64,000 nucleotides of DNA from Candidatus Eiseniibacteriota bacterium. Its GTDB lineage: Bacteria > Arandabacterota > Arandabacteria > Arandabacterales > Arandabacteraceae. The DNA lies in contig JBDRNT010000151.1 in assembly GCA_043810925.1 (NCBI GenBank), positions 3,565-67,564 on the forward strand. Direction: 5' to 3'. Of the stretch, positions 1 through 13,938 are shown one piece after another. Numbering within the stretch: the stretch's first letter is position 1; each line of letters begins with the position of its first letter. Position numbers and translations under genes: made by a program. Below the pieces are notes generated by a model that made no database searches, was not told the origin of the DNA, and saw only the letters and a list, made by a program, of their open reading frames with translations.

Positions 1-1230
1 TACCTGAACGCAAGCTCGAATGCATCCGCAACGCTCACCAAGACAGGTGAAGATCAGGAGACGCAGCAGCAGGCCAAGGTCAACGCCGGTATGAATACCG
101 ACCTCAGGTTCGGCGGGAAATCCCAGACCATAAGATCGACAATGGTCCTGACGGCCGTACGCAAGGACATAGGGAAGTGGTGGAGTGATGGTGTCGGTGG
201 CAAGGTCGTCAACTCAGCCTACAGCGACCAGACCGATTTCATCGCAAAGTTCAAACCGTTCGGCTGGATCGACTTCGATCCGTCACTGACGGCGTCCGCG
301 ACCATCTATGATGAGGACAAGGCCGGAAAGAGAGGCGCCGCCAGGCTCATGTACTGGGGTGGTGTCTCCACAACCACATCGATCTTCAAGACCTTCTTTC
401 CCAGGATCGGCCCCTTGCAGGCGTTGAGACATGTGATTTCACCACGGATCACCTACACCCACCGGCCGGACTTCTCCAAGTACAGGAACCGTTTCTACAG
501 CCTGCCCGGGATATCAGGAGAGATATCCAAGTCGAGGATGATGAACATAAGCGTGTCCAACAAGCTTCAGGCCAAGGTCGGGAGTGGGGCGGAGGTTAAG
601 AAGATGAACAACCTCCTGTCTTTTGATACGTCGACATCATACGACTTCCTCTACAAGGACAAGGGCAAGGAGACTCCCCTGTCGACCATAAACAACAAAC
701 TGCGGTTCTACCCGTCGGATGTTATTACGTTCGATCTCGACTTTACCAACAACCCGGAGGATCTGGCCTTCGAGTCTTTGAATCTCACAACGAGACTCTC
801 ATGCTCGGGCAAAGAGCCCCTTCCACCGGGTTTCACCAAACCCGAACTCAAGGAAGAGCCGCTTGTGCCGGAAGAGGGGGTGGGAGGTTCGGATGCAGCC
901 GCCCCGACCGGAAAGCCCTGGCATACGAGTGCTATTTTCAGGTATACCAAGGCCTACAACGGGGGCGATGACAACTACTGGCTTGATTTCCAGGCGGGAT
1001 TCAGCTTCACCACCAACTGGAGAGTCGAGTATAGCGGCAGGTTCGATCTCTCCGGAAAGGAGACCGTCCACCAGGAATACTCGATCTACCGGGATCTGCA
1101 CTGTTGGGAGGCCCGTTTCGTCCGCAGATACTCCGCCGGCGAATGGCAGTATTACTTCAGGATAAACATAAAGGCCCATCCCGAGATCTACACCGAGCGG
1201 GGCCTCCGCACCCTCTACCGCCAATACTAG
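1..1230 (+). CDS. LptD-like outer-membrane LPS assembly beta-barrel, 5'-truncated by the window edge
   Basis: Frame is open from base 1. Amphipathic beta-strand pattern; C-terminal 'IYRDLHCWEARF...YYFRINIKA' is typical of LptD-like proteins of FCB/delta-type bacteria. Confidence 0.75.
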   Translation, partial: YLNASSNASATLTKTGEDQETQQQAKVNAGMNTDLRFGGKSQTIRSTMVLTAVRKDIGKWWSDGVGGKVVNSAYSDQTDFIAKFKPFGWIDFDPSLTASATIYDEDKAGKRGAARLMYWGGVSTTTSIFKTFFPRIGPLQALRHVISPRITYTHRPDFSKYRNRFYSLPGISGEISKSRMMNISVSNKLQAKVGSGAEVKKMNNLLSFDTSTSYDFLYKDKGKETPLSTINNKLRFYPSDVITFDLDFTNNPEDLAFESLNLTTRLSCSGKEPLPPGFTKPELKEEPLVPEEGVGGSDAAAPTGKPWHTSAIFRYTKAYNGGDDNYWLDFQAGFSFTTNWRVEYSGRFDLSGKETVHQEYSIYRDLHCWEARFVRRYSAGEWQYYFRINIKAHPEIYTERGLRTLYRQY

Positions 1231-1794: not shown

Positions 1795-2778
1795 ATGCTG
1801 AAATACCTGCTGATCGTTTCTGTACTGCAACTCAGCCTGCTGCCGGGTGTGTACGGAGCAACATCATTCGACCGGACAGATGCCGATATGGGGTTCATCT
1901 ACCGCGATGAGCCTCAGAGGTTGGTATTTGAGTTTGACAATGTTTCGGATAATTCGCTCCGTATACTCGGAATCGAGCCTTCCTGTGACTGCACATCGGC
2001 CCAGGTAGTACCGGAGACACTGGGTCCGCGTGGCCACGGCAAGGTTCTCGTCTTCTTCGATCCCATGGGTTACGAGGGAAAAGGCCGGTTCAAGGAATTC
2101 GTGCGGATCGTAACGGACGACCCCTCAGAGCCCGAAGTACTGCTCACCTTCTCCGCCGAAGTGGGTATCGGCCCGGAACCCGATCCCCGTGCGCTCACCT
2201 TCGGCAAGATATGCAGGGGTGGCAGTGATACGCTTGACCTCTCTCTGCGCGCTGCGCCCGGTGAATTGCTCAAAGTGCTCGATGCATACAGCGACACGGG
2301 CTGCGTCATAGTCGAAGCGGTGGAGACCGGGGTCAGGGGCGAACATGAATTCAGAGTCATCGCTACCAACAGGGAAGGCTGCGGGCGCGTGGCAGGCCTT
2401 GTCACGATTCTGACGACCGACAGCCTGAGAAGTGAGGTCCGTGTCCCGATTACCCTGAGCCTGGTCGGGAGGATCATTGTCGAGCCGGACATAATCGCTT
2501 TCGGCCCGACGCTCCCCGGCACCTTTGTTGCGCAGACGGTTCGGATCTACTCCAAGGACGGCTTCAAGTTCAGTATCCCGAATGTCTCCTGCTCGGTGGA
2601 AAACCTTGAACCTGTCATCACGCCGGTTAGCGACAGCTCATGTGAGCTCAGGCTGATGGTCAAGGAGGGCTCTCCTCCAGGCAGGGTGGCCGGCGAGATC
2701 ACGCTGGAGACAGACTGCCCGGATGAATCGCCTCTGGATATCAGAGTTACCGGCTATATAAGGAAGGGCGGGAAGTGA
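1795..2778 (+). CDS. secreted DUF1573-domain protein with further Ig-like domains
   Basis: Signal peptide; 'FEFDNVSDNSLRILGIEPSCDCTSA...LGPRGHGKVLVFFDP' matches the DUF1573 CxC pattern. Confidence 0.75.
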   Translation: MLKYLLIVSVLQLSLLPGVYGATSFDRTDADMGFIYRDEPQRLVFEFDNVSDNSLRILGIEPSCDCTSAQVVPETLGPRGHGKVLVFFDPMGYEGKGRFKEFVRIVTDDPSEPEVLLTFSAEVGIGPEPDPRALTFGKICRGGSDTLDLSLRAAPGELLKVLDAYSDTGCVIVEAVETGVRGEHEFRVIATNREGCGRVAGLVTILTTDSLRSEVRVPITLSLVGRIIVEPDIIAFGPTLPGTFVAQTVRIYSKDGFKFSIPNVSCSVENLEPVITPVSDSSCELRLMVKEGSPPGRVAGEITLETDCPDESPLDIRVTGYIRKGGK

Positions 2779-3245
2779 AGCCGATCCTCAGACGTGCCGT
2801 CATAGAAGGTGGAATCATACTGGTGGTTGCCGCTGCGGCCGGGCTGGCGGTCAACCATGCCAGAACGGAGGGCATTCCGCTTATTGCTGATGCCGAGGCT
2901 TTCCGGGTCCGCACAAACGCCGAGTTCATGACGGCCAAGGATGCATTCCGGTTCTTTGAAGAGGGATCTGCCTTGTTTCTTGATGCCCGGGGTCCTGATC
3001 TGTTTGACGTGAAGCGCATTGAAGGGGCGATGAACATCTCCCCATCAGCAGAAGGTATCGAGAGCGTGGCTTGGCTTGCCGGAGCGGATATCCGCATCAT
3101 CTGCTATGCATGTGAGGAGAACCAGCGCGAGGCGGGAGTGCTGGCCGACATGCTGCTTGAGATCGGATGTAAGCAGGTATACGTCCTCCATGGCGGTATC
3201 GAGGGCTGGATAGACTCCGGTTTTCCTATGGAGGTAACAGGCTGA
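2775..3245 (+). CDS. membrane-anchored rhodanese-like domain protein
   Basis: N-terminal TM helix; 'LFLDARG...RIEGAMNI' and 'VYVLHGGIEGWIDSGFP' rhodanese signatures. Confidence 0.85.
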   Translation: MKPILRRAVIEGGIILVVAAAAGLAVNHARTEGIPLIADAEAFRVRTNAEFMTAKDAFRFFEEGSALFLDARGPDLFDVKRIEGAMNISPSAEGIESVAWLAGADIRIICYACEENQREAGVLADMLLEIGCKQVYVLHGGIEGWIDSGFPMEVTG

Positions 3246-3704
3246 GTGCGGTTTCTCAAACACATGGTCTCGAACAAGTACGTGATCTTTGCGATAAGGC
3301 TCATCCTTGGTTTTGTCTTCATCTATGCTTCCATAGACAAAATCGCACAGCCCGGTGCGTTTGCCGAGAACATTTACAATTACAGAATGCTACCCCACTG
3401 GGCCATCAATCTGATGGCGCTTGTGATGCCATGGCTTGAACTGATCTGCGGAGTTCTGATTATCACCGGTGTGTTCCTGAGGGGAAGCGCATTCATGATC
3501 GGTTTGATGCTGGGAGTGTTTATAATCGCGATCTCCGCCGCCCTCGTGAGGGGGCTTGACATAAGCTGCGGCTGCTTCAGCATGGAAGGGGGCCACGGCG
3601 TGGCTGTGGATCTGCTCATACGGGATGTGTTGATGTTCGCCGGGGCAGCGATCGTATTGTTTTTGGGAACCTCGGCGCTCTCGCTCAGACGAGGCGCGGA
3701 TTGA
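3246..3704 (+). CDS. MauE/DoxX family redox-associated membrane protein
   Basis: 'RLILGFVFIYASIDKI', 'PWLELICG', 'GLDISCGCFS' (CGC motif); four hydrophobic segments. Confidence 0.9.
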   Translation: MRFLKHMVSNKYVIFAIRLILGFVFIYASIDKIAQPGAFAENIYNYRMLPHWAINLMALVMPWLELICGVLIITGVFLRGSAFMIGLMLGVFIIAISAALVRGLDISCGCFSMEGGHGVAVDLLIRDVLMFAGAAIVLFLGTSALSLRRGAD

Positions 3705-3764: not shown

Positions 3765-5141
3765 ATGAGGTGGCATAGGGTCGGCATAAGCACTCTTGTC
3801 TTCCTGGGTCTTGTTCTCGTCGGGTTTTCGGGTGTGCTTCGTAGCCAGGGTGATGAAAGGCTGATGCTGGTATTCACTACCGGGACTGAAGGCGAGCTCA
3901 ATGCCTGCGGCTGACACGCCGGGGACAAGGGTGGCCTGGCCCGGAGGGCCGGCTTCATTGATTCACTGAGAGAAGTACACGACAATGTCCTCGTCGTAGA
4001 TGTGGGTGATTTCTTCGGCAATCGCTCTCCCAGACAGGAAAAGACAAAGACCACGGTCGTTGTAGACTACATGAGGATGGCCGGATATGACGTAGTCACG
4101 CCCGGTGAGCGCGAGATGAACTATGGCCTGGACTTCCTGATTGAAGAGACCAAGCAGGGCAAGTTTGAGACCGTGAGTGCCAACCTTCACAATAAGCAGG
4201 ACAGTACCCTGATATTCAAACCCTACGCGATCCGGAAGATAGCAGGCGTCAGTATCGGTTTCCTGGGATTCATGGATGATGATCCGCGTCGGGTGGGTGT
4301 TTTCGAGCAGCTCGAGAATGCCTACGTCTCAAGCTATATCCAGGCTGCAGAGGACTATCTGCCCGAGGTTCGTGAAAAGGCGGATCTGGTAGTCGGGCTT
4401 GCTCACGTCGGGCTTGGAAACGCACGGAAGCTGGCTGAAAGGCTTCCGGACTTCGATGTCATACTCGTCGGGCACGGCAGCGACAGAACGGCGATGGCCG
4501 AGAAGATCGGAGAGACCATCCTCGTCAAGGCCGGAAGTAAGAGCAGCTCGATAGGAATGCTCTTGCTCGCCCTCGACAGCGACAAACGGATTGTGGGTTT
4601 TGACGGCGGTTCCGAAGGGCTCACGAAGTATGGTAGAAAGCATCTGGATGTACAGCGGATTGTCAAGTCCTGTGAGGACCGTGAGAAGGCTCGTGACAGG
4701 CTGATCTCGGCACGGAAGTACAAGCTGCCCATCATCCCCCGGCGCCCCGAGGTACTGGCCGCCGAGGGCTATCTGGGGTGGGAAACGTGCAAAGCTTGCC
4801 ACAGCAAGATCCACGATCGATGGTCGCAGGATCCTCATTCCCAGGCTTTCGCGACGCTTGCGAAGGATGACAAGTGGAACGATGCGAGCTGCCTGCCCTG
4901 CCATACAACGGGTTATGAGATTGCGGCGCTCAAGGATTCGAGCGACGTAAAACCTGAAATGTGGAATGTCCAGTGTGAGGCCTGTCACGGGATGGGGACG
5001 CATCACAAGCGAGACGGTTCCATGAGGCCGGTTGCCGAGAGTGTGTGCCTGAGATGCCACACTCCCGAGTGGACCCCCGAGTGGAACTACGCGGAGATGC
5101 TGGAGAAGATCAACCACGGCAGGGACGAGGCTTCAGATTGA
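3765..5141 (+). CDS. probable selenoprotein: secreted UshA/5'-nucleotidase-like metallophosphoesterase (CxU motif) fused to a tetraheme cytochrome c (c554-like); 458 aa with Sec at codon 50
   Basis: ATG 3765 with GGAGG RBS and signal peptide. Reads GELNACG-[TGA 3912-14]-HAGDKGGLARRAGF in frame with ORF 4002..5141 (VDVGDFF, PGEREM, GLAHVG, VGHG). C-terminus has CKACH, CLPCH, CEACH, CLRCH. Confidence 0.85.
3934..3953 (+). promoter_or_regulatory. candidate bacterial SECIS hairpin for UGA 3912
   Basis: CTGGCCC-GGA-GGGCCGG stem-loop with a G-led apical loop ~28 nt after the UGA. Confidence 0.5.
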
Positions 5142-5275
5142 AAGCCCGGGCTGTCGTTTTCGTGTTACTTGCAGCATTTACGGTGCTGCTCCTGGTTGGG
5201 TTGCGGTTCGCTGAGACCGGGGACATCTACTCCACCGGCCGCTACCTCTGACTGAGCTGCATAGGGATCGGGTGA
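5138..5275 (+). CDS. probable 45-aa membrane selenopeptide with UxxC motif (CxxC-IGIG small-protein family, CD1871A-like)
   Basis: TTG start overlaps the upstream stop; one TM helix, then GRYL-[TGA 5249-51]-LSCIGIG-TGA(5273-75). The final stop overlaps the GTG of the 4Fe-4S gene. Confidence 0.8.
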
Positions 5276-5287
5276 TCCCCTCCGTGC
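5258..5287 (+). promoter_or_regulatory. candidate bacterial SECIS hairpin for UGA 5249
   Basis: GGGATC(5264-69)-GGGT-GATCCC(5274-79) perfect stem, with a lower GCAT/GTGC pairing; apical loop begins 18 nt after the UGA. Confidence 0.65.
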
Positions 5288-6207
5288 TTGCGATCTTACG
5301 CATCCTGCGTTCGGCGCTCAGCCGTGTGGGTTCTGCTTACCGGAAGCGTCGTCCGTGGCAGATCACTTCGACTATTCTCCACAATGCTTATCTGCCGGCT
5401 TCAATAGGTTTTACCGTTTACCGGGGTTTTCTTTATCTTCCCAATCTGGCGAAGATCACGCTCTACCAGGGGTTCTTAAAAGGCTTCTGCACGCCGACGC
5501 TTAACTGCTACGCGTGCCCGGGAGCGCTTATGTCCTGCCCTATCGGGAGCCTCCAGCATTTTGCAATCAGGCAACAGTTCCCGTTCTTCCTCGTGGGATT
5601 CTTTGGTCTCGTGGGTGTAGGTGTGGGAAGGATGACCTGTGGGTGGCTCTGTCCTTTCGGATTCTTTCAGGATCTGCTTAAGAAGATCTCAAGGAGAGTC
5701 GTACGACTTCCCCGGTGGATGGGTAACTTCAAGTATGTCTCGCTGGTTGGCATCGCCATATTGCTGCCGTTTTTCCTGGGGGAACTGTGGTTCTCCAAAC
5801 TCTGCCCGGCAGGGGGCCTGGAAGGTGCGATTCCCTGGGTGGCCGCGGGAGCCTCGGAGTCACCTGAGCTGGCGGGACTGGACGTGAGATCGATGATAGG
5901 CACCTTCTTCTGGATCAAGATGGCGATCCTCGGGGTTTTTCTGCTGGCCATGGTTTTCATCAAGCGGCCGTTCTGCCGGACGGCATGCCCGTTAGGGGCG
6001 ATCTTCTCACTCTTCAACAGGATCAGCCTGGTGAAGCTCAGTATCAACGAGGAGAAGTGCACCGAATGCGGCATTTGCGAGCAGATCTGCCCTGTCGATC
6101 TTAAAGCTTACAAAGAGCTGGATTCGACGGAATGTATCAAGTGCTTTGAGTGCACCAAGTGCCCGACGGGCGCGATCAAGGCGACTTTCGGCTTCGGCGG
6201 AAGCTGA
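5272..6207 (+). CDS. membrane 4Fe-4S polyferredoxin (NapH/MauN/YccM-like)
   Basis: LNCYACP, CGWLCPFG, FCRTACPLG, CTECGICEQICP, CIKCFECTKCP plus several TM helices. Confidence 0.9.
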   Translation: MIPSVLAILRILRSALSRVGSAYRKRRPWQITSTILHNAYLPASIGFTVYRGFLYLPNLAKITLYQGFLKGFCTPTLNCYACPGALMSCPIGSLQHFAIRQQFPFFLVGFFGLVGVGVGRMTCGWLCPFGFFQDLLKKISRRVVRLPRWMGNFKYVSLVGIAILLPFFLGELWFSKLCPAGGLEGAIPWVAAGASESPELAGLDVRSMIGTFFWIKMAILGVFLLAMVFIKRPFCRTACPLGAIFSLFNRISLVKLSINEEKCTECGICEQICPVDLKAYKELDSTECIKCFECTKCPTGAIKATFGFGGS

Positions 6208-6956
6208 TGGAATCCCTGACCGATCTGCTTTCGGAGACCGGGCTTAAGCGCCGGTCACCGGTGAGTGTACTTACCGGCGCCGGTGTCTCCGCCGAGAGCG
6301 GGGTCCCCACCTTCAGAGGCGAAGAAGGGCTCTGGAAAAACTTCAGAGCCGAAGAGCTGGCAACACCCGAGGCCTTCGACCGGGATCCGGCCACAGTCTG
6401 GGAATGGTACGATTACAGACGCCGGATAATTGCCGCCAAGGAGCCCAATCCCGCACACCGCGCGATCACGCGTCTTGATGAAGCCTTTCCTGACTTCCTG
6501 CTTATCACCCAGAACGTGGATGGGCTTCATGCCCGTGCGGGGACCAGACGAATCGCCGAGTTGCATGGGAACCTCTTCAGGGTACGGTGCACGCGGGACG
6601 GCGAGGTTTCCGATAACCTGGGAGTACCGCTTACCGAGATACCTCCGCGGTGCAAGTGCGGCTCGCTCCTGAGGCCGGATGTCGTCTGGTTCGGCGAGGG
6701 GCTCCCCAGGGAGGAGTTCGACAGGGCGTTCAATGCCGCCGAAGCCTGCAAGTTGATGCTCGTGGTCGGCACCTCGGCCGTTGTTCAGCCGGCGGCATCA
6801 ATACCGCTTGTGGCCAAGCAGGCTGGAGCCCTGGTAGTGGAAGTCAACCCCGATCCCACACCGCTTACCGATCTCGTCGATCTCCATCTGCGGGGCAACG
6901 CCGGCGAGGTCCTGCCGAGGGTCGTAGATATCCTGCTCGATTTTACAGATACGTAA
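6207..6956 (+). CDS. cobB: NAD-dependent protein deacylase (sirtuin, CobB)
   Basis: GAGVSAESGVPTFRG, TQNVDGLH, HGNL, RPDVVWFGE, GTSAVVQPA; ATG overlaps the upstream TGA. Confidence 0.92.
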   Translation: MESLTDLLSETGLKRRSPVSVLTGAGVSAESGVPTFRGEEGLWKNFRAEELATPEAFDRDPATVWEWYDYRRRIIAAKEPNPAHRAITRLDEAFPDFLLITQNVDGLHARAGTRRIAELHGNLFRVRCTRDGEVSDNLGVPLTEIPPRCKCGSLLRPDVVWFGEGLPREEFDRAFNAAEACKLMLVVGTSAVVQPAASIPLVAKQAGALVVEVNPDPTPLTDLVDLHLRGNAGEVLPRVVDILLDFTDT

Positions 6957-7692: not shown

Positions 7693-10600
7693 ATGAAGGT
7701 ATGGCGGGGTCTGATCCTCGTTACTCTTACAATCCTGATAGTCGGGGTAGCTGCCGGTGACGCCGGAGCCGGAGGCGGCCTGTTCTTTGTCTCGGAGGAC
7801 GAGGCGGCGCCCGAGACCGACGCGGCCCACAATAGTCTAGAAGGGGCCGATCTCACCCTGATGTATGCCGGGTTTAAGGGGCCCGGGCCGGACTCACTGA
7901 TCATAGTCCTCGACTACTCAAGCAACTGGTACAACATACACCTGATGGTTGCCCTCGAGCGCAATGGTGATGCGGATGGTGCGCCATCCGACCCGTTCGA
8001 ATTTCCCGTCACCTACGGACATGTGCTTAAGCCCGACTATGTTTTTACCTACAAGTACAGCGCCAACGACTACGCCGATCTCAGGAAATGGAACGGTGGG
8101 TGGGAGTTCTGGCATCTGGCACAGTCCAGGTGGATAACCGATCCAGCCGACGCGGGCAAGAACGCCCTGGCCATGGTGACCAAGACCAATTCACAGGTGA
8201 TCTTCAGTTTTCCGGCCGATGCAATCGGTGAATTCCTGCCCGGAGATACTTTCAGACTCCAATCCTATCTTACCTTTGAGGCCTGGGACGACGAAACACA
8301 GCAGATGGTCAAGTTCAACGCACTTGACTCCAACCCTCACGATCTCACTCATGATATGGAACCTGATGAGGGTGAATGGTGGGAAACCGCCACTGACCCC
8401 GTAACGCTGTCAGAGTATGCGACCTACATACTGCCGGAGTATGGAGTGCCTCCCAGTCTGTTCTTTGCGGCAGCCTTCCCGGACAGTGCGGCACCCGGGG
8501 ACGATGTAAGGTTCAGTGTGGACGTAAGAGATGCCGGCGGTGGGATCGGTGATGTCTCTGTCGATCTTTCGAGCGTCGGTGGAGACCCCGAGACGCCACT
8601 CAAAGATGATGGCACGGGTGGTGATGGGACGGCATCCGATGGCGTATTCTCGGTGCTCTATACATTGCCCGACAGGGTGGGTGGTGGTGTACACACGCTT
8701 GAGTTTTCTGCCCGGGATTCCACCAATGTCATGCAATCCCTGACTGAGGGGACGCTCAAGATCCTGACCGTTCCGGAACTCATCCTGACGGTTGCCGACT
8801 CGGTCGGGGACGACCACGGACCCAACCAGCCCGGCGTGTCCGGCCTTTACTACGTATATCCTACGAACCGTGTTTTCTACGCCGGTGCCTTCGACATACA
8901 TGAAGTGGAGATGATCGTCGACGGGCAGTACCTCGTCGTACGCGTCCACATAGGGAACCTCCCGGCATCAAACCAGGTCGGGTGGGGCGCCCCGTTGCCG
9001 GGAGCGACCTGTACCAACCCCAACAGCGCCGATCTCAATCTCGAGAAGATCGATATCTACATAGATTCCGAGGAAGGCGTGGGCGCGCAGATGGGACTCC
9101 CCTATCGCTATGTCGACATCGCCGAGCATGACGCCTGGGAGTATGCGGTCGCGATAGAAGGATGGTGGAAAGGGTTTGTCGAATCCAACGGGTCGGACAA
9201 CATTGGGCAGTGGACGCTTCGCACGCAGACCGTGATCATCGATTTCTGCGACGATAATGTAGAGGACTATATAGACGTTAAGATCGGACTCGCGGCGCTG
9301 GGCAGCCCCACGCCCGAGGAGATCCTAAGGTGGGACTTCATCGTCACGATGTCCGGTCACGACGGCGATAGCAGCGACGACAACTTCGGAGCCATAAGAT
9401 CGGTCAATGCCGGCACACACGAGTGGCAGTTCGGCGGCGGCCGGAACAGCTCCGGCGGCAGGGACCGCGATCCCAACCTGATCGACGTGGTCGCGATACC
9501 GGGCCAGGGAAAAGCCGCGGGACGGACCCAGGAGGAGATGCTTGATTACCTCACGGATGAGGCCTGGGAGAGATACGACCTGGGCTATAATTCCTGCCGG
9601 CTCGAGGCTTCGTTCCCCTCCGGAGGCAAGGGTGTAATACTGGGTACGGTGGCGCTCGACGGCCCGCCCGCGAATGTTGAAGTCTATGTCGTGAACTCGC
9701 TGACCGGTGAGATCGGCGGAAACGGCATAACGACCGTGCCGGGAGGAACCGGGGCGTTTCAGATCCTGAGCATCGAGGACGGTACCTATTATCTCATAGC
9801 CAGCGCTCGCGGCTATGTCGCCTTTGATTCGCTTGTGACGATTACGGGCGAAGAGTTCATCGAGGTCGACATCGAGCTCGCCGTTGCGCGCGCAACAAGA
9901 TATGCGTTCATAGACAGCCTCGGTAATGAGATTTACTCCGAGTTTGTTACGGTGAGTCTGCCCGACAGCGGGATCTTCACCTATGAAGACCTGCTCTTCG
10001 AACCCAGGGACGATGCAGGGAATTCCGCCATCTTAAGCGGTGTCGAGCCCGACAGCGTAAGGGTATCTGTCAGTCTTATCGATCCCTCGGTGCCTCCGCG
10101 TGGGGAGGTCGTTCTGGCTGCGGATGCGATGGGCACCGAGTTGATTGACGAGTTCATCACGTCGGAGATGTTCGAGGACGGTGTGGGCAGGTTCTGGGTG
10201 CGTGACGACAGCCTGGAGGTATTGAGGATCGAGGTCAGCAAGGACTTGCTGGCGGGCGCCGTGGAGCTCAGGGTAAAGGAGCTCGAACCCAGGAAGGTCA
10301 GCCTTACGCCGGATGTGACTGAGATAGTAGTCGGAGGTTCCGAGCGAATCGAGCTGGGTGTCCAGCTCCTGGACGATGTAGACAACACGATACCGGTGCG
10401 CAACGTCACGGTGCGTGTTGTCGCCGTTCAAGGTGAGCCGATTGTCGAGCCGCCGGTCGACGATACCGACGGCAACGGGTTCTTCAAGTCATCGGTCTAC
10501 GGTTACCGGGCCGGCACCGTGCGGCTTACCGCCAGATCGGAAGACAACATCTATAAGAACCTGGCGTCGGACACAATCGAGGTCTTCTTCAGGCCCGGTC

Positions 10601-13600
10601 CTGCCGCTTCGATAACCGCTTCTCTCGATCCGATTGTTGCTGACAAAGGCCAGAACGGCACGGTGACTTTCCAGGTGGTTGACGCGTTCGGGAACGCCGT
10701 AGCCGAGCCGGGGGTTTCGATAGACCTGTCGACATACCCTGAGGGACTTCTGACCTCGCTTGAGACTCCGGTAACAACCGGCGCAACGGGGCTGGCCGAG
10801 GCCGACTTCACGGCCGGTAACCGCTATGGCTTCGTATCCATAGAGGCGACATCGGACTACCCGGTCGATCCGGTTGTGCTTTCCATCGCGCCGACCTCGC
10901 TTGTGGCCGAAGACGAGGCCGCTCCCGAGAGTGACCCCGCTCATAACAGCGATCCAGGCATCGATCTCACTACGATGTATGCAACTGTTCACGCCGACAC
11001 CCTGAACATTGCTCTTGAATTCTCGACTGCATGGGATGGTGCCCATCTCATGGTGGTCTTAGAGCGAAACAGGGATCATGCCGGTGGCGAACAGGATCCC
11101 TTCGAGTTTCCGATCTTCTACAGACACACCTTCAGACCCGACTACGTTTTCACCTACAAGTATTCGGGTGGTGACTATGCCGATCTTCGCAGGTGGAACG
11201 GTGGGTGGGAGTTCTGGCATCTTGCCAACGGAACCTGGATCACCGATCCGAATGATGCCGGCAAGGATGCCAAGGGCATGGTCGAGAAACTGGCTACCCT
11301 GGTGTGGTTTAAGTTCCCGCTTGCCGCGATAGGAGGGGTTTCAGAGGGTGATACGCTCAGGCTCGAGGCATACGTCACCCAGGAGTTCGAAGGCTCCAAG
11401 TACAACGCCCTTGACTCGAGTCCCAGTGATGCGACGCACGATATGGATCCCGACGAGGGTGAGTGGTGGGAGACGGCGACGACACCCGTCACACTCTCGA
11501 AATACGGTCTTTACATAGTACCGCTCCTGACAACGCCTCCCGATCTGAGCGATCCATCGGCCTCCCCGGACAGCGTCTCGCCCGGAGAGATTGTGACCTT
11601 CTCGGTCACGGTGGAAGATGCCGGTAGTGGGGTGGGTGACGTCTTTATGGATCTCACGCCGCTCGGCGGCCGGTCCGTGACCTGGCTTTATGACGACGGA
11701 ACACACGGGGATGACGCGCAGCTTGACGGGACCTACGCGAGCCGGTTCACGATTCCAGCGGGGGTCTCACAGGGGATTCACAATGTCGCGTTCGTGGCCA
11801 GAGACAGTCTCAACCTTGCGACTTCGACCGTCTCCGTCCCCGTCACGATCACGACGTTGCCCGTACCCTTCATCTCGGTCAGGGATTCGATCGGGGACGA
11901 CCACGGACCCAACATCACGGATGCCTCAGGAAATCCGGTGGCCGGACTTTATTACTACTATCCGACAAATGGCGTCTTCGCCGAAGGCGTATTCGACATA
12001 GAACAGGTTGATCTCATAATCGACGGCACGTGGCTGGCGATCAAGGTGCATGTCGGTGAGGTGCCCTCATCGGAGGCTGTCGGCTGGAATGCGCCGTATC
12101 CAGGAGAGAAGTGTACCGACCCGAACAAGGCCGATCTCAATCTGCAGAAGATAGACATCTATATCGATTCCGAGGAAGGTGTCGGGGCCACCTCGGGCCT
12201 TCCCAATCGCAATCACGACATAGCGAGGAGTGATGCCTGGGAGTATGCCGTCGCGATAGAAGGTTGGTGGAGGGGAATCGTAAGTTCCAACGGGGAAAAC
12301 GCAACCGCCTTCTGGACCTTGAGCAAACTCGCGTCTTCGATGTATTTCTGCACGGATCACGTCGACAATTCGATCGAGATAAGTATTGCGCTCGAAGCGC
12401 TCGGTCTTCTGCAGCCCGGGGAGGACATGACCGAGGAGAGGAAAGCGGCCATAGAGCGTGAGATCAAGACCTGGGAATTCATAATCACGACGGCCAGCCA
12501 CGATGGCGATAGCAGCGATGAGAATTTCGGAGGCATAAGATGGGTCAACCGGTCAACCGGTGAATGGCAGTTCGGGGGTGGACGGGACGGCGAAGGCGGC
12601 AGGGACAGGGATCCAAACATAGTCGATGTGGTAACAGTGCGCGACTCCCTCTCGCTTGCGGGAAGACCCCAGGAGGAGATGCTCAACTACGATCTCCCGT
12701 ATGCCCAGAAGCGCTTTGAGAATCTCTTGAACGCCTGCGTGCTGGAGGCGACATTCTCCGAGGATATCTCACCACCCGACATAACCCCGTTCCACAGGGG
12801 CCGGTTCGGGCATTCGAGATGGTGGGTGCTCCAGTACAGCCCGGCTTCATTCTGGACACTGATAGTGGATGAAAGTGATATAGAGGAGGTCCAGTTCCGC
12901 TGGCGGCCTGAGGGGCAGATGTCCTGGAACGTGACCGAGATGGGACACATACTTGAGGACTACTGGATAGCCGATATCGACCCGGTGGAACTGGAAAGCG
13001 CGACGCGTCCGGTAACGCTGGTTGACGGAACCGTGGGACGGCCGTTCCAGGCCGAGATCTATGCCCGCGATGAGTTCGGTAACGAGGGCAGGAGCGAACT
13101 GCTGACATTCGCCGTTGCTGAGGACAGACTGGCCTTTGATGACAGCATAAACATAAAGCCGGGTGAGGCTTTCATAGCGTATGACGGCACATTCGTCCTT
13201 GTGCCGGACACAACGCTTTCGGAGGATTACGACGAGTTTGATATCCGGGTTACCCCGCTGCCCGAGTACGGTCCGGGATCGGTAGATCTCACGAATCTGA
13301 GATCGTCGATGGACTACATGGGTGTGGGACGGCGGATTGATGTCGTCGGCAGGAGCCTGGAGGATACGAGCATGATTTCAAAGCTCGACAACTCCATGAT
13401 CGTGGCTCTCCACTATCCATCGTACAAGCAGAGCGGACGGCTGGACGAGCAGCGAATAGGTCTTTTCCGGTATAACGATCTCACCGAGCGCTGGATCGGT
13501 ATGTACGGCTCCGTCAACGACTGGGGGAATGCCGTCAGGGCGGAGATAGACGAACCCGGCACCTTCGGTCTCTTCGCGGATTCACGGCTTTCATATGATT

Positions 13601-13938
13601 CGGGGAAGGGGCTTTCGGGTGTCACCGTCGAACCCAATCCCTTCTCGCCGAACGGTGACGGGCTCTATGACGAGACAAGAATAAACTTCTATCTCGCCAG
13701 AGAGATCGACTGGATAACGATCGAAATCTACGACATCGCCGGGCAAGCCGTGCGGACGATCCGTTGGCAGGAGGGTGTGACCCGGTTGACGCGGAACGAA
13801 GTCTACATCGATTGGGACGGAAAAGACGATAACGGTAGAGTCGTGCCCTATGGTATTTACATTCTAAGAGTCGAGGCGCGCTTTAAGGTTGCGCCGAACC
13901 TCGAACGTGAAAACAAAGCTGTTGTTGTGATCAAGTAG
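7693..13938 (+). CDS. giant (2081 aa) secreted multidomain protein: two copies of [Trp-rich DOMON-like + choice-of-anchor-X-like Ig + glucodextranase-C DOMON-like], central Ig-like domains, C-terminal FlgD/CHU_C-type sorting domain
   Basis: Signal peptide; duplicated 'EDEAAPE.D..HNS', 'L.DDGT.GD...DG' and 'DS.GDDHGPN...YYYP.N.VF..G.FDI'; C-terminal 'PNPFSPNGDGLYDET...IYDIAGQAVRTI...WDGKDDNGRVVPYGIYI'. Confidence 0.8.
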   Translation: MKVWRGLILVTLTILIVGVAAGDAGAGGGLFFVSEDEAAPETDAAHNSLEGADLTLMYAGFKGPGPDSLIIVLDYSSNWYNIHLMVALERNGDADGAPSDPFEFPVTYGHVLKPDYVFTYKYSANDYADLRKWNGGWEFWHLAQSRWITDPADAGKNALAMVTKTNSQVIFSFPADAIGEFLPGDTFRLQSYLTFEAWDDETQQMVKFNALDSNPHDLTHDMEPDEGEWWETATDPVTLSEYATYILPEYGVPPSLFFAAAFPDSAAPGDDVRFSVDVRDAGGGIGDVSVDLSSVGGDPETPLKDDGTGGDGTASDGVFSVLYTLPDRVGGGVHTLEFSARDSTNVMQSLTEGTLKILTVPELILTVADSVGDDHGPNQPGVSGLYYVYPTNRVFYAGAFDIHEVEMIVDGQYLVVRVHIGNLPASNQVGWGAPLPGATCTNPNSADLNLEKIDIYIDSEEGVGAQMGLPYRYVDIAEHDAWEYAVAIEGWWKGFVESNGSDNIGQWTLRTQTVIIDFCDDNVEDYIDVKIGLAALGSPTPEEILRWDFIVTMSGHDGDSSDDNFGAIRSVNAGTHEWQFGGGRNSSGGRDRDPNLIDVVAIPGQGKAAGRTQEEMLDYLTDEAWERYDLGYNSCRLEASFPSGGKGVILGTVALDGPPANVEVYVVNSLTGEIGGNGITTVPGGTGAFQILSIEDGTYYLIASARGYVAFDSLVTITGEEFIEVDIELAVARATRYAFIDSLGNEIYSEFVTVSLPDSGIFTYEDLLFEPRDDAGNSAILSGVEPDSVRVSVSLIDPSVPPRGEVVLAADAMGTELIDEFITSEMFEDGVGRFWVRDDSLEVLRIEVSKDLLAGAVELRVKELEPRKVSLTPDVTEIVVGGSERIELGVQLLDDVDNTIPVRNVTVRVVAVQGEPIVEPPVDDTDGNGFFKSSVYGYRAGTVRLTARSEDNIYKNLASDTIEVFFRPGPAASITASLDPIVADKGQNGTVTFQVVDAFGNAVAEPGVSIDLSTYPEGLLTSLETPVTTGATGLAEADFTAGNRYGFVSIEATSDYPVDPVVLSIAPTSLVAEDEAAPESDPAHNSDPGIDLTTMYATVHADTLNIALEFSTAWDGAHLMVVLERNRDHAGGEQDPFEFPIFYRHTFRPDYVFTYKYSGGDYADLRRWNGGWEFWHLANGTWITDPNDAGKDAKGMVEKLATLVWFKFPLAAIGGVSEGDTLRLEAYVTQEFEGSKYNALDSSPSDATHDMDPDEGEWWETATTPVTLSKYGLYIVPLLTTPPDLSDPSASPDSVSPGEIVTFSVTVEDAGSGVGDVFMDLTPLGGRSVTWLYDDGTHGDDAQLDGTYASRFTIPAGVSQGIHNVAFVARDSLNLATSTVSVPVTITTLPVPFISVRDSIGDDHGPNITDASGNPVAGLYYYYPTNGVFAEGVFDIEQVDLIIDGTWLAIKVHVGEVPSSEAVGWNAPYPGEKCTDPNKADLNLQKIDIYIDSEEGVGATSGLPNRNHDIARSDAWEYAVAIEGWWRGIVSSNGENATAFWTLSKLASSMYFCTDHVDNSIEISIALEALGLLQPGEDMTEERKAAIEREIKTWEFIITTASHDGDSSDENFGGIRWVNRSTGEWQFGGGRDGEGGRDRDPNIVDVVTVRDSLSLAGRPQEEMLNYDLPYAQKRFENLLNACVLEATFSEDISPPDITPFHRGRFGHSRWWVLQYSPASFWTLIVDESDIEEVQFRWRPEGQMSWNVTEMGHILEDYWIADIDPVELESATRPVTLVDGTVGRPFQAEIYARDEFGNEGRSELLTFAVAEDRLAFDDSINIKPGEAFIAYDGTFVLVPDTTLSEDYDEFDIRVTPLPEYGPGSVDLTNLRSSMDYMGVGRRIDVVGRSLEDTSMISKLDNSMIVALHYPSYKQSGRLDEQRIGLFRYNDLTERWIGMYGSVNDWGNAVRAEIDEPGTFGLFADSRLSYDSGKGLSGVTVEPNPFSPNGDGLYDETRINFYLAREIDWITIEIYDIAGQAVRTIRWQEGVTRLTRNEVYIDWDGKDDNGRVVPYGIYILRVEARFKVAPNLERENKAVVVIK

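Follow-up and report, generated by a model that had tools for sequence, protein, structure and literature searches.

We focus here on a gene junction in a 64,000-nucleotide (nt) stretch of DNA from a Candidatus Eiseniibacteriota bacterium (contig JBDRNT010000151.1; the whole stretch is called the window below), at which a very small membrane selenopeptide adjoins a NapH-like polyferredoxin. On the comparisons set out below, UGA 5249–5251 is almost certainly decoded as selenocysteine (Sec), and the gene at 5138–5275 belongs, by homology, to the CD1871A-like CxxC micropeptides found alongside NapH-like polyferredoxins, as a Sec form. We consider it very probable that the several parts of the reading hold jointly, namely a 45-residue selenopeptide, a selenocysteine insertion sequence (SECIS) at its stop codon and at the gene junction, a polyferredoxin start most likely at 5284, and a proposed redox partnership and coupled translation of the two products. 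What is new here is a covariation-backed SECIS that necessarily overlaps both a stop codon and the start region of the next gene, a bias of that stop toward UGA, and a corrected start codon for the polyferredoxin.

A selenocysteine form of a membrane micropeptide family

Read through the UGA, the gene gives M(TTG)KARAVVFVLLAAFTVLLLVGLRFAETGDIYSTGRYL-U-LSCIGIG-stop, with a short, basic N-terminus and a single membrane helix. Its TTG shares bases with the stop of the upstream gene (TTGA) and stands 7 nt downstream of GAGG at 5127–5130. The original prediction, made on this DNA from its letters, had placed the TTG, the UGA, the stop, a hairpin and a downstream GTG, and all of these coordinates proved correct on re-checking. 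The peptide fits the features of the CD1871A family: it is small, has a single helix, ends in CxxC with U as the first C and adjoins a 4Fe-4S membrane protein.

Sixty related genomes were searched with the NapH-like protein, that is, independently of the peptide, and 16 matched at E ≤ 1e-20. Directly upstream of the NapH-like gene, 15 of these 16 loci encode the same peptide, the one exception being L023, which has none. In the Sec column, 12 have TGA (all of the window's family and order) and three distant ones have TGC or TGT. The residues that follow the UGA are constant in these relatives (L/M-S/T-C-I-G-I/V-G, then a stop), and the codons for them differ synonymously, with Ser as AGC, TCC, TCT or TCA, Cys as TGC or TGT and Gly as GGG or GGA; L016 and L020 have an ATG start exactly 37 codons ahead of U, matching the TTG of the window. 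The conserved peptide and the Sec/Cys pairs thus bear out what had been proposed, a CD1871A-like UxxC membrane selenopeptide ahead of a 4Fe-4S gene. Features that mark bacterial selenoprotein genes are found here: pairing of UGA with Cys in one column, conservation of the protein past the UGA, and Sec machinery in the same genome, which encodes selA (587 bits), selB (376 bits), two selD genes and a tRNA-Sec (74 bits), all over their cut-offs. One selD itself has one in-frame TGA, encoding a selenoprotein SelD (56288–57423 of contig C89; L181, L191), and is separated by about 120 nt from the tRNA-Sec gene downstream of it; the second, without a TGA, is on contig C38.

It is very improbable that UGA 5249 is a plain stop, giving a 37-residue product, and that the conserved sequence past it serves the polyferredoxin gene only as a regulatory leader or structure. 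Standard gene callers would indeed end the gene there, and the hairpin alone is energetically ordinary, but homologues with Cys at the same column continue LSCIG[IV]G-stop, the variation past the UGA is synonymous, the Sec machinery is complete, and the hairpin follows TGA and not Cys codons. Support for a real gene comes from conservation of the peptide, from the Sec/Cys pairs and from covariation in the hairpin, and not from folding energy.

The family extends well beyond these relatives. A degenerate DNA pattern, x-U-[LM]-[ST]-C-I-G-[IV]-G-stop, scanned over one genome per species, gave at least 119 matches, and among the 80 that were fetched, 78 are clear homologues from many phyla; the other two (L082 and L100) are chance matches and were set aside. 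Carriers among the matches listed include Desulfobacterota-type lineages, Rokubacteria, Zixibacteria, Poribacteria, Cloacimonadota and Eisenbacteria. A profile of 48 family members retrieved 312 database proteins, and all 17 that were inspected are CxxC forms, some of them carrying the NCBI name 'CD1871A family CXXC motif-containing protein', with Cys forms reading CLSCIGIG; the name is given to Cys forms from the same clades. Against NF040920, the curated model of that family, 33 of the 48 aligned members match at E ≤ 0.01. Like that family, the window peptide has about 45 residues, an N-terminal membrane helix, a CxxC-IGIG end (with the difference that its first Cys is selenocysteine) and a position directly ahead of a NapH-like gene.

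Within the phylum of the window, the Cys-form pattern was found in none of 18 genomes, so that Cys controls were taken from another class and from metagenomes. Filtering removed sequences with no stop at +8, with a stop 30 codons or less upstream, without a helix-like stretch or with a duplicate 120-nt core; the distinct sequences that were left comprise 93 Sec and 80 Cys forms. In the DNA examined, a NapH-like gene lies downstream of 81 of the 93 Sec forms and 77 of the 80 Cys forms. Some genomes have several copies of the micropeptide (L048 and L150; G062 and G063): in L048 a Sec and a Cys copy (232–283 and 482–533, minus strand) lie about 250 nt apart ahead of one NapH-like gene, and the three loci of G063 comprise two Sec copies and one Cys copy.

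A SECIS hairpin that contains the stop codon

The hairpin begins 12 nt past the Sec codon, with its 5′ arm at 5264–5269, the loop GGGT at 5270–5273 and its 3′ arm at 5274–5279, which places the loop 18 nt from the UGA. The bacterial SECIS (bSECIS) consensus, as given in a 2026 review of prokaryotic selenoproteins (PMC13188914), is a stem of 4–16 base pairs (bp) with a loop of 3–9 nt, located 16–37 nt from the UGA and with a G within the first two loop positions; a stem of 6 bp, a GGGU loop and a distance of 18 nt agree with this consensus in every respect. The hairpin thus resembles other bacterial SECIS elements in being a stem-loop just past the UGA, with 6 bp and a 4-nt loop that has G in its first two positions. 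Unlike the typical element, on the other hand, it holds the stop codon of its own gene, enters the junction and overlaps the next ribosome-binding region.

A covariation analysis of the hairpin in relatives, which the original prediction had proposed as a check, was run on a gap-free alignment of the six pairs in 86 distinct Sec-form sequences, and it found the hairpin conserved with compensatory changes. Standard pairs fill 91.1% of the cells, compared with 42–63% when the 3′ partners are slid. Double-sided changes, which fall in two of the six pairs, number 30 cells against a shuffled mean of 11, and none of 500 shuffles reached this number. Pair 24–35, which joins the third base of a Gly codon to the base behind the stop, occurs as GC (56), GU (13), AU (7), CG (1) and UA (1), and the pair between the first base of the Ile/Val codon and its partner occurs as GC (46), AU (21) and GU (13). 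For the four outer pairs, the search pattern did not extend to the 3′ partners, which the search hence did not select; all four pairs are intact in 78 of the 93 Sec forms vs 2 of the 80 Cys forms. That the hairpin is a conserved SECIS holding the stop of the peptide, as had been suggested, is upheld by these compensatory changes.

The stop codon itself takes part in this structure. It is TGA in 73 of the 78 hairpin-bearing Sec forms, in 52 of the 80 Cys forms and in 4 of the 15 Sec forms that lack this register, and a TAA stop would cost the closing C-G pair; judged by these counts, the stop codon is under structural pressure toward UGA. In the remaining five of the 78 hairpin-bearing forms the second UGA is swapped for UAA, which argues that it is an ordinary stop and agrees with the earlier proposal that the two UGAs, 24 nt apart, are decoded differently. 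In our reading, UGA-38 is recoded by a minimal bacterial SECIS, with a 6-bp stem and a GGGU loop, 12 nt downstream. With the Sec just eight codons short of the end, such a SECIS has to draw its 5′ arm and loop from the final Gly-Ile-Gly codons and its 3′ arm from the stop and the four bases that follow, so that the junction is occupied. C-terminal Sec families, such as UXX-star and KCU-star, must likewise have their SECIS behind the stop. Both families are listed in PMC13188914.

Several observations weigh against the joint reading. First of all, the window peptide scores 9.9 bits (E 0.67) against NF040920, under the 32-bit cut-off, and of the eight other Sec forms scored, seven reach 14.5–23.8 bits and L075 has no match, whereas the named Cys form P0115, at 34.7 bits, lies above it; the Sec forms thus constitute a related branch that is not named by the curated model. 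Second, the folding energy of 5240–5310 is no better than that of shuffled sequences (z = −0.12, with 83 of 200 folding as well), and Rfam, searched at E ≤ 10 over 3800–5400, returned no SECIS family, the one match being a chance match to a small RNA. Third, 15 of the 93 Sec forms are without this hairpin register. Twelve of them form one Desulfobaccales-like clade, in which the NapH-like ATG overlaps or abuts the stop of the peptide; a longer hairpin spanning the stop and the ATG is predicted there, with consistent pairing and with compensatory change in none of its 16 pairs, and it stays a SECIS candidate. As to the others, in L026 and L092 the hairpin (GGGTA-GGG-TACCC or GGTTA-GGT-TAACC) is displaced by six bases, and L088 has one mismatch in this register. 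Fourth, some Cys forms retain the stem: the Deferrimicrobia-like L167 keeps all six pairs, and L158, L169, L180, L219 and L259 keep five of the six, with an A-C mismatch mid-stem at the Ile codon, the Deferrimicrobia Sec forms shown all having six pairs. The stems left in Deferrimicrobia-like Cys forms look like decay after a recent change from Sec to Cys, and the stem may also have a second function besides Sec insertion. Finally, 9 of 45 Deferrimicrobia genomes with Sec forms have no selB match over the cut-off; in the five such genomes that were checked, selA is present in three and tRNA-Sec in the remaining two, one of which also has a selD with an in-frame TGA. The presence of selB does not discriminate between Sec and Cys forms in Deferrimicrobia, where it is found in 62 of 77 genomes.

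The likely polyferredoxin start and possible translational coupling

The original prediction had the polyferredoxin start at the GTG in the hairpin loop, at 5272, and this part did not stand. In L010, from the same genus and with a protein 93% identical, a C is missing behind the hairpin, which shifts the loop GTG out of frame, and the sole early start is an ATG aligned with GTG 5284 of the window. Among 13 genomes of the phylum with the locus, the loop GTG is usable in the window, L013 and L019 only and unusable in the other ten, and 3 of 13 is about what chance would give for three frames. In Deferrimicrobia, too, the loop GTG is out of frame, and the start alternates between ATG, GTG and TTG at the first base following the 3′ arm. 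It is therefore unlikely that translation begins at the loop GTG with only Sec-inserting ribosomes opening the hairpin, even though no start codon of the open reading frame (ORF) 5272–6207 precedes GTG 5272, which has AGGGA 4 nt upstream and has in-frame counterparts in L013 and L019.

The other genomes of the phylum start 10–19 nt past the first base of the stop, mostly with MKRRLWQ. The window and L010 have in common an 18-residue extension ahead of the MKRRLWQ-type motif, which is less conserved than the remaining protein, and because of this poor conservation GTG 5326, which is also kept in L010, still comes into consideration. From the reading frames of these relatives, the polyferredoxin start is most likely GTG 5284, less likely GTG 5326, and not GTG 5272. 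In the minimum free energy fold, GUG 5284 pairs with CAU 5260–5262 in a weak lower stem. For the wider family, NapH-like starts taken from the longest ORF were noisy in GC-rich DNA and were replaced by a frame guided by a hidden Markov model. Counted in this way from the stop's first base, the starts behind Sec forms peak at +7 (27–31 of 72), and most of those behind Cys forms fall between −1 and +7, with many TAATG or TGATG overlaps. A tight junction is thus common to Sec and Cys forms, which argues that it is ancestral to the peptide/NapH-like pair; in the Sec forms, as the start positions indicate, the 3′ arm of the hairpin displaces the start to just beyond the hairpin.

A start at 5284 (less likely 5326) would place the ribosome-binding region of the polyferredoxin in or against the hairpin. 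The 16S rRNA 3′ end of the same genome was located on contig C95, and GGTGATCC, within the hairpin, is an exact complement of GGATCACC in its 3′ tail. The hairpin may therefore hold the polyferredoxin ribosome-binding site; the complementarity is equally explicable as a by-product of the Gly codon, the UGA and the GATC palindrome. In the metagenome Cys forms L197–L276 the last codons (ATA GGA ...) yield AGGA-like stretches 5–8 nt ahead of the NapH-like ATG, and the Gly-Ile-Gly end in Cys forms may double as the Shine-Dalgarno sequence of the NapH-like gene.

Two further readings bear on this overlap. The first, which we regard as rather unlikely, is that the hairpin is mainly or also a SelB-bound operator: SelB-GTP-Sec-tRNA on the loop would block the polyferredoxin ribosome-binding site, ample selenium would repress independent initiation, and only ribosomes that come through the peptide would reinitiate. 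Its sign is opposite to that of the original prediction, in which Sec insertion opens the way to the polyferredoxin. There is a precedent in Escherichia coli, where a SECIS-like element in the selAB 5′ untranslated region, 3 nt from the Shine-Dalgarno sequence of selA, mediates repression on binding SelB-GTP-Sec-tRNA (PMC13449736, citing Thanbichler and Bock 2002). Consistent with such an operator are the match of GGTGATCC to the 16S 3′ tail, the position of the loop GGG 7 nt before the start in Deferrimicrobia and the retention of most of the stem by some Cys forms. On the other hand, 78 of the 80 Cys forms are without the stem, which is thus dispensable for polyferredoxin expression in general, and the 16S match has the alternative origin just given. 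The second, a two-in-one device that we put forward tentatively and would not bet on, assigns the GGGU loop and the 3′ arm two roles, as the SelB-binding SECIS of the micropeptide and as the site at which ribosomes bind for the polyferredoxin, jointly with gating by selenium: depending on how much selenium is available, SelB occupancy and ribosomes that decode Sec would control whether the iron-sulfur partner is made. The family would have been pre-adapted to this, in that the conserved Gly-Ile/Val-Gly-stop codons already give the 5′ arm and a GGNU loop, and behind the stop no more than four to six bases would need to change for a switch between Cys and Sec. Such a few-base switch would account for the alternation of Sec and Cys forms inside single clades and even inside one genome.

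Returning to the reading that we prefer, a 45-residue selenopeptide followed by a polyferredoxin that starts at 5284, we propose the following sequence of events. Under the positive-inside rule the basic end of a membrane helix stays inside; the helix would thus anchor the peptide with its U/CxxC end facing outward or at the membrane surface. There the peptide would act as a redox-active selenol/thiol partner subunit of the polyferredoxin, and the pair may serve the envelope redox proteins of the operon, for example the neighbouring UshA-like selenoprotein. Ribosomes that end the peptide would probably pass to the polyferredoxin start, which lies a few bases further along, and those halted at UGA-38 would end about 24 nt earlier, facing an intact hairpin. 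Coupling of polyferredoxin translation to completion of the peptide is plausible, since the tight junction is common to the Cys forms; that it depends on selenium, and with which sign, is what we infer. Translation-coupled, selenium-dependent control has been described for fdhF-Sec of Treponema primitia (PMC3892789). The junction would be like the selAB operator in having a SECIS next to a start region and able to control the downstream frame, and like T. primitia fdhF-Sec in that passage of ribosomes through the Sec codon governs downstream expression. Unlike in either of them, a single hairpin in the window would serve Sec insertion and also control access to the gene that follows.

Neighbouring genes, known families and significance

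Table 1. Features at the micropeptide/polyferredoxin junction and in its operon (positions in the window)
Feature	Position	Strand	Remarks
Membrane selenopeptide gene, 45 residues	5138..5275	+	TTG start, one helix, L-U-LSCIGIG, TGA stop; translated with TGA as U
Sec-candidate UGA, residue 38	5249..5251	+	TGA in 12 relatives; TGC/TGT in the same column in 3 distant ones
SECIS hairpin GGGAUC-GGGU-GAUCCC	5264..5279	+	6 bp, 4-nt loop; covariation and link to Sec forms
GGTGATCC, candidate Shine-Dalgarno inside hairpin	5271..5278	+	Exact complement of GGATCACC, 16S rRNA 3′ tail
Loop GTG, polyferredoxin start in the original prediction	5272..5274	+	In frame with ORF 5272-6207; probably unused
True stop TGA of the peptide	5273..5275	+	Sits in hairpin loop and 3′ arm
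NapH-like 4Fe-4S membrane protein	5284..6207	+	Likely start GTG 5284, alternative GTG 5326; ORF 5272-6207
UshA-like selenoprotein with C-terminal multihaem domain	3765..5141	+	NF041198 262.8 bits, Cytochrome_C554
DUF1573/OS_HP2-like protein	1795-2778	+	Operon context
Rhodanese	2775-3245	+	Operon context
MauE/DoxX membrane protein	3246-3704	+	Operon context

The downstream protein matches Pfam Fer4_5 at 52.2 bits, over the cut-off, and shares with the NapH/MauN polyferredoxins (TIGR02163; Fer4_5) the Fer4_5 domain, CX3CP motifs after the membrane helices and a C-terminal two-cluster ferredoxin domain. Unlike NapH itself, it scores 73.7 bits against TIGR02163, where the cut-off is 213, and has no nap genes nearby. 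A structure predicted for its L022 homologue had a pLDDT (a model's own confidence measure) of 66.8, and a Foldseek search of this model against the PDB returned nothing at E ≤ 0.001.

Upstream, the UshA-like gene (Table 1) is found in 11 of the 12 Sec-form relatives. It lies just under the NF041198 cut-off of 275, and has an ACGU motif with the Sec codon TGA 3912–3914. Its product has a metallophosphoesterase fold and, at the C-terminus, a multihaem domain of the cytochrome c type, and the gene contains a GC-rich stem-loop (3933–3953) with a GGA loop 28 nt past its UGA; the UshA-like family is included in PMC13188914. The DUF1573/OS_HP2-like protein of the operon is a Cys form, with no in-frame TGA; its family has known selenoprotein members, and a gene for an HU-like DNA-binding protein (1384–1686) precedes it. 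On the other side, an ORF for a Sir2/CobB-type NAD-dependent deacylase (6150–6956) shares, as listed, 58 nt with the end of the NapH-like gene, and probably begins further downstream in fact. Further on, 7693–13938 encodes a giant protein of 2081 residues with glucodextranase-like SLH-type modules, Big_1/invasin Ig domains and, at its C-terminus, a FlgD_ig/CHU_C domain of the kind that sorts proteins for type IX secretion.

The CD1871A-like family is named but unstudied, and no paper on the name CD1871A was found in the literature searched. The main text of PMC13188914 makes no mention of NF040920, NapH, polyferredoxin, 4Fe-4S, 'membrane protein', micropeptide or IGIG, its supplements and its references 63–65 (Haft and co-workers) lying outside this check. 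Likewise, literature joining 'selenoprotein' with 'NapH' contained nothing relevant, as judged from titles and the openings of abstracts. TsoA (LULAxC; NF045695), which does appear in that review, was considered and rejected as a counterpart: its spacing differs, and the peptide has no match to it at E ≤ 1.

The findings add to the bacterial selenoproteome a widespread family of very small membrane selenoproteins, with at least 119 matches in many phyla. Its genes are unannotated because gene callers end them after 37 codons and the Sec forms do not reach the cut-off of the curated model. Sec at the first position of the CxxC motif flags that residue as reactive and thereby offers a handle on the function of the CD1871A-like/NapH-like pair. 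Furthermore, the junction offers a compact natural example of a SECIS, a stop codon and the initiation region of the next gene falling within the same 16 bases, and selenium-dependent translational coupling is for this reason directly testable by a few point mutants.

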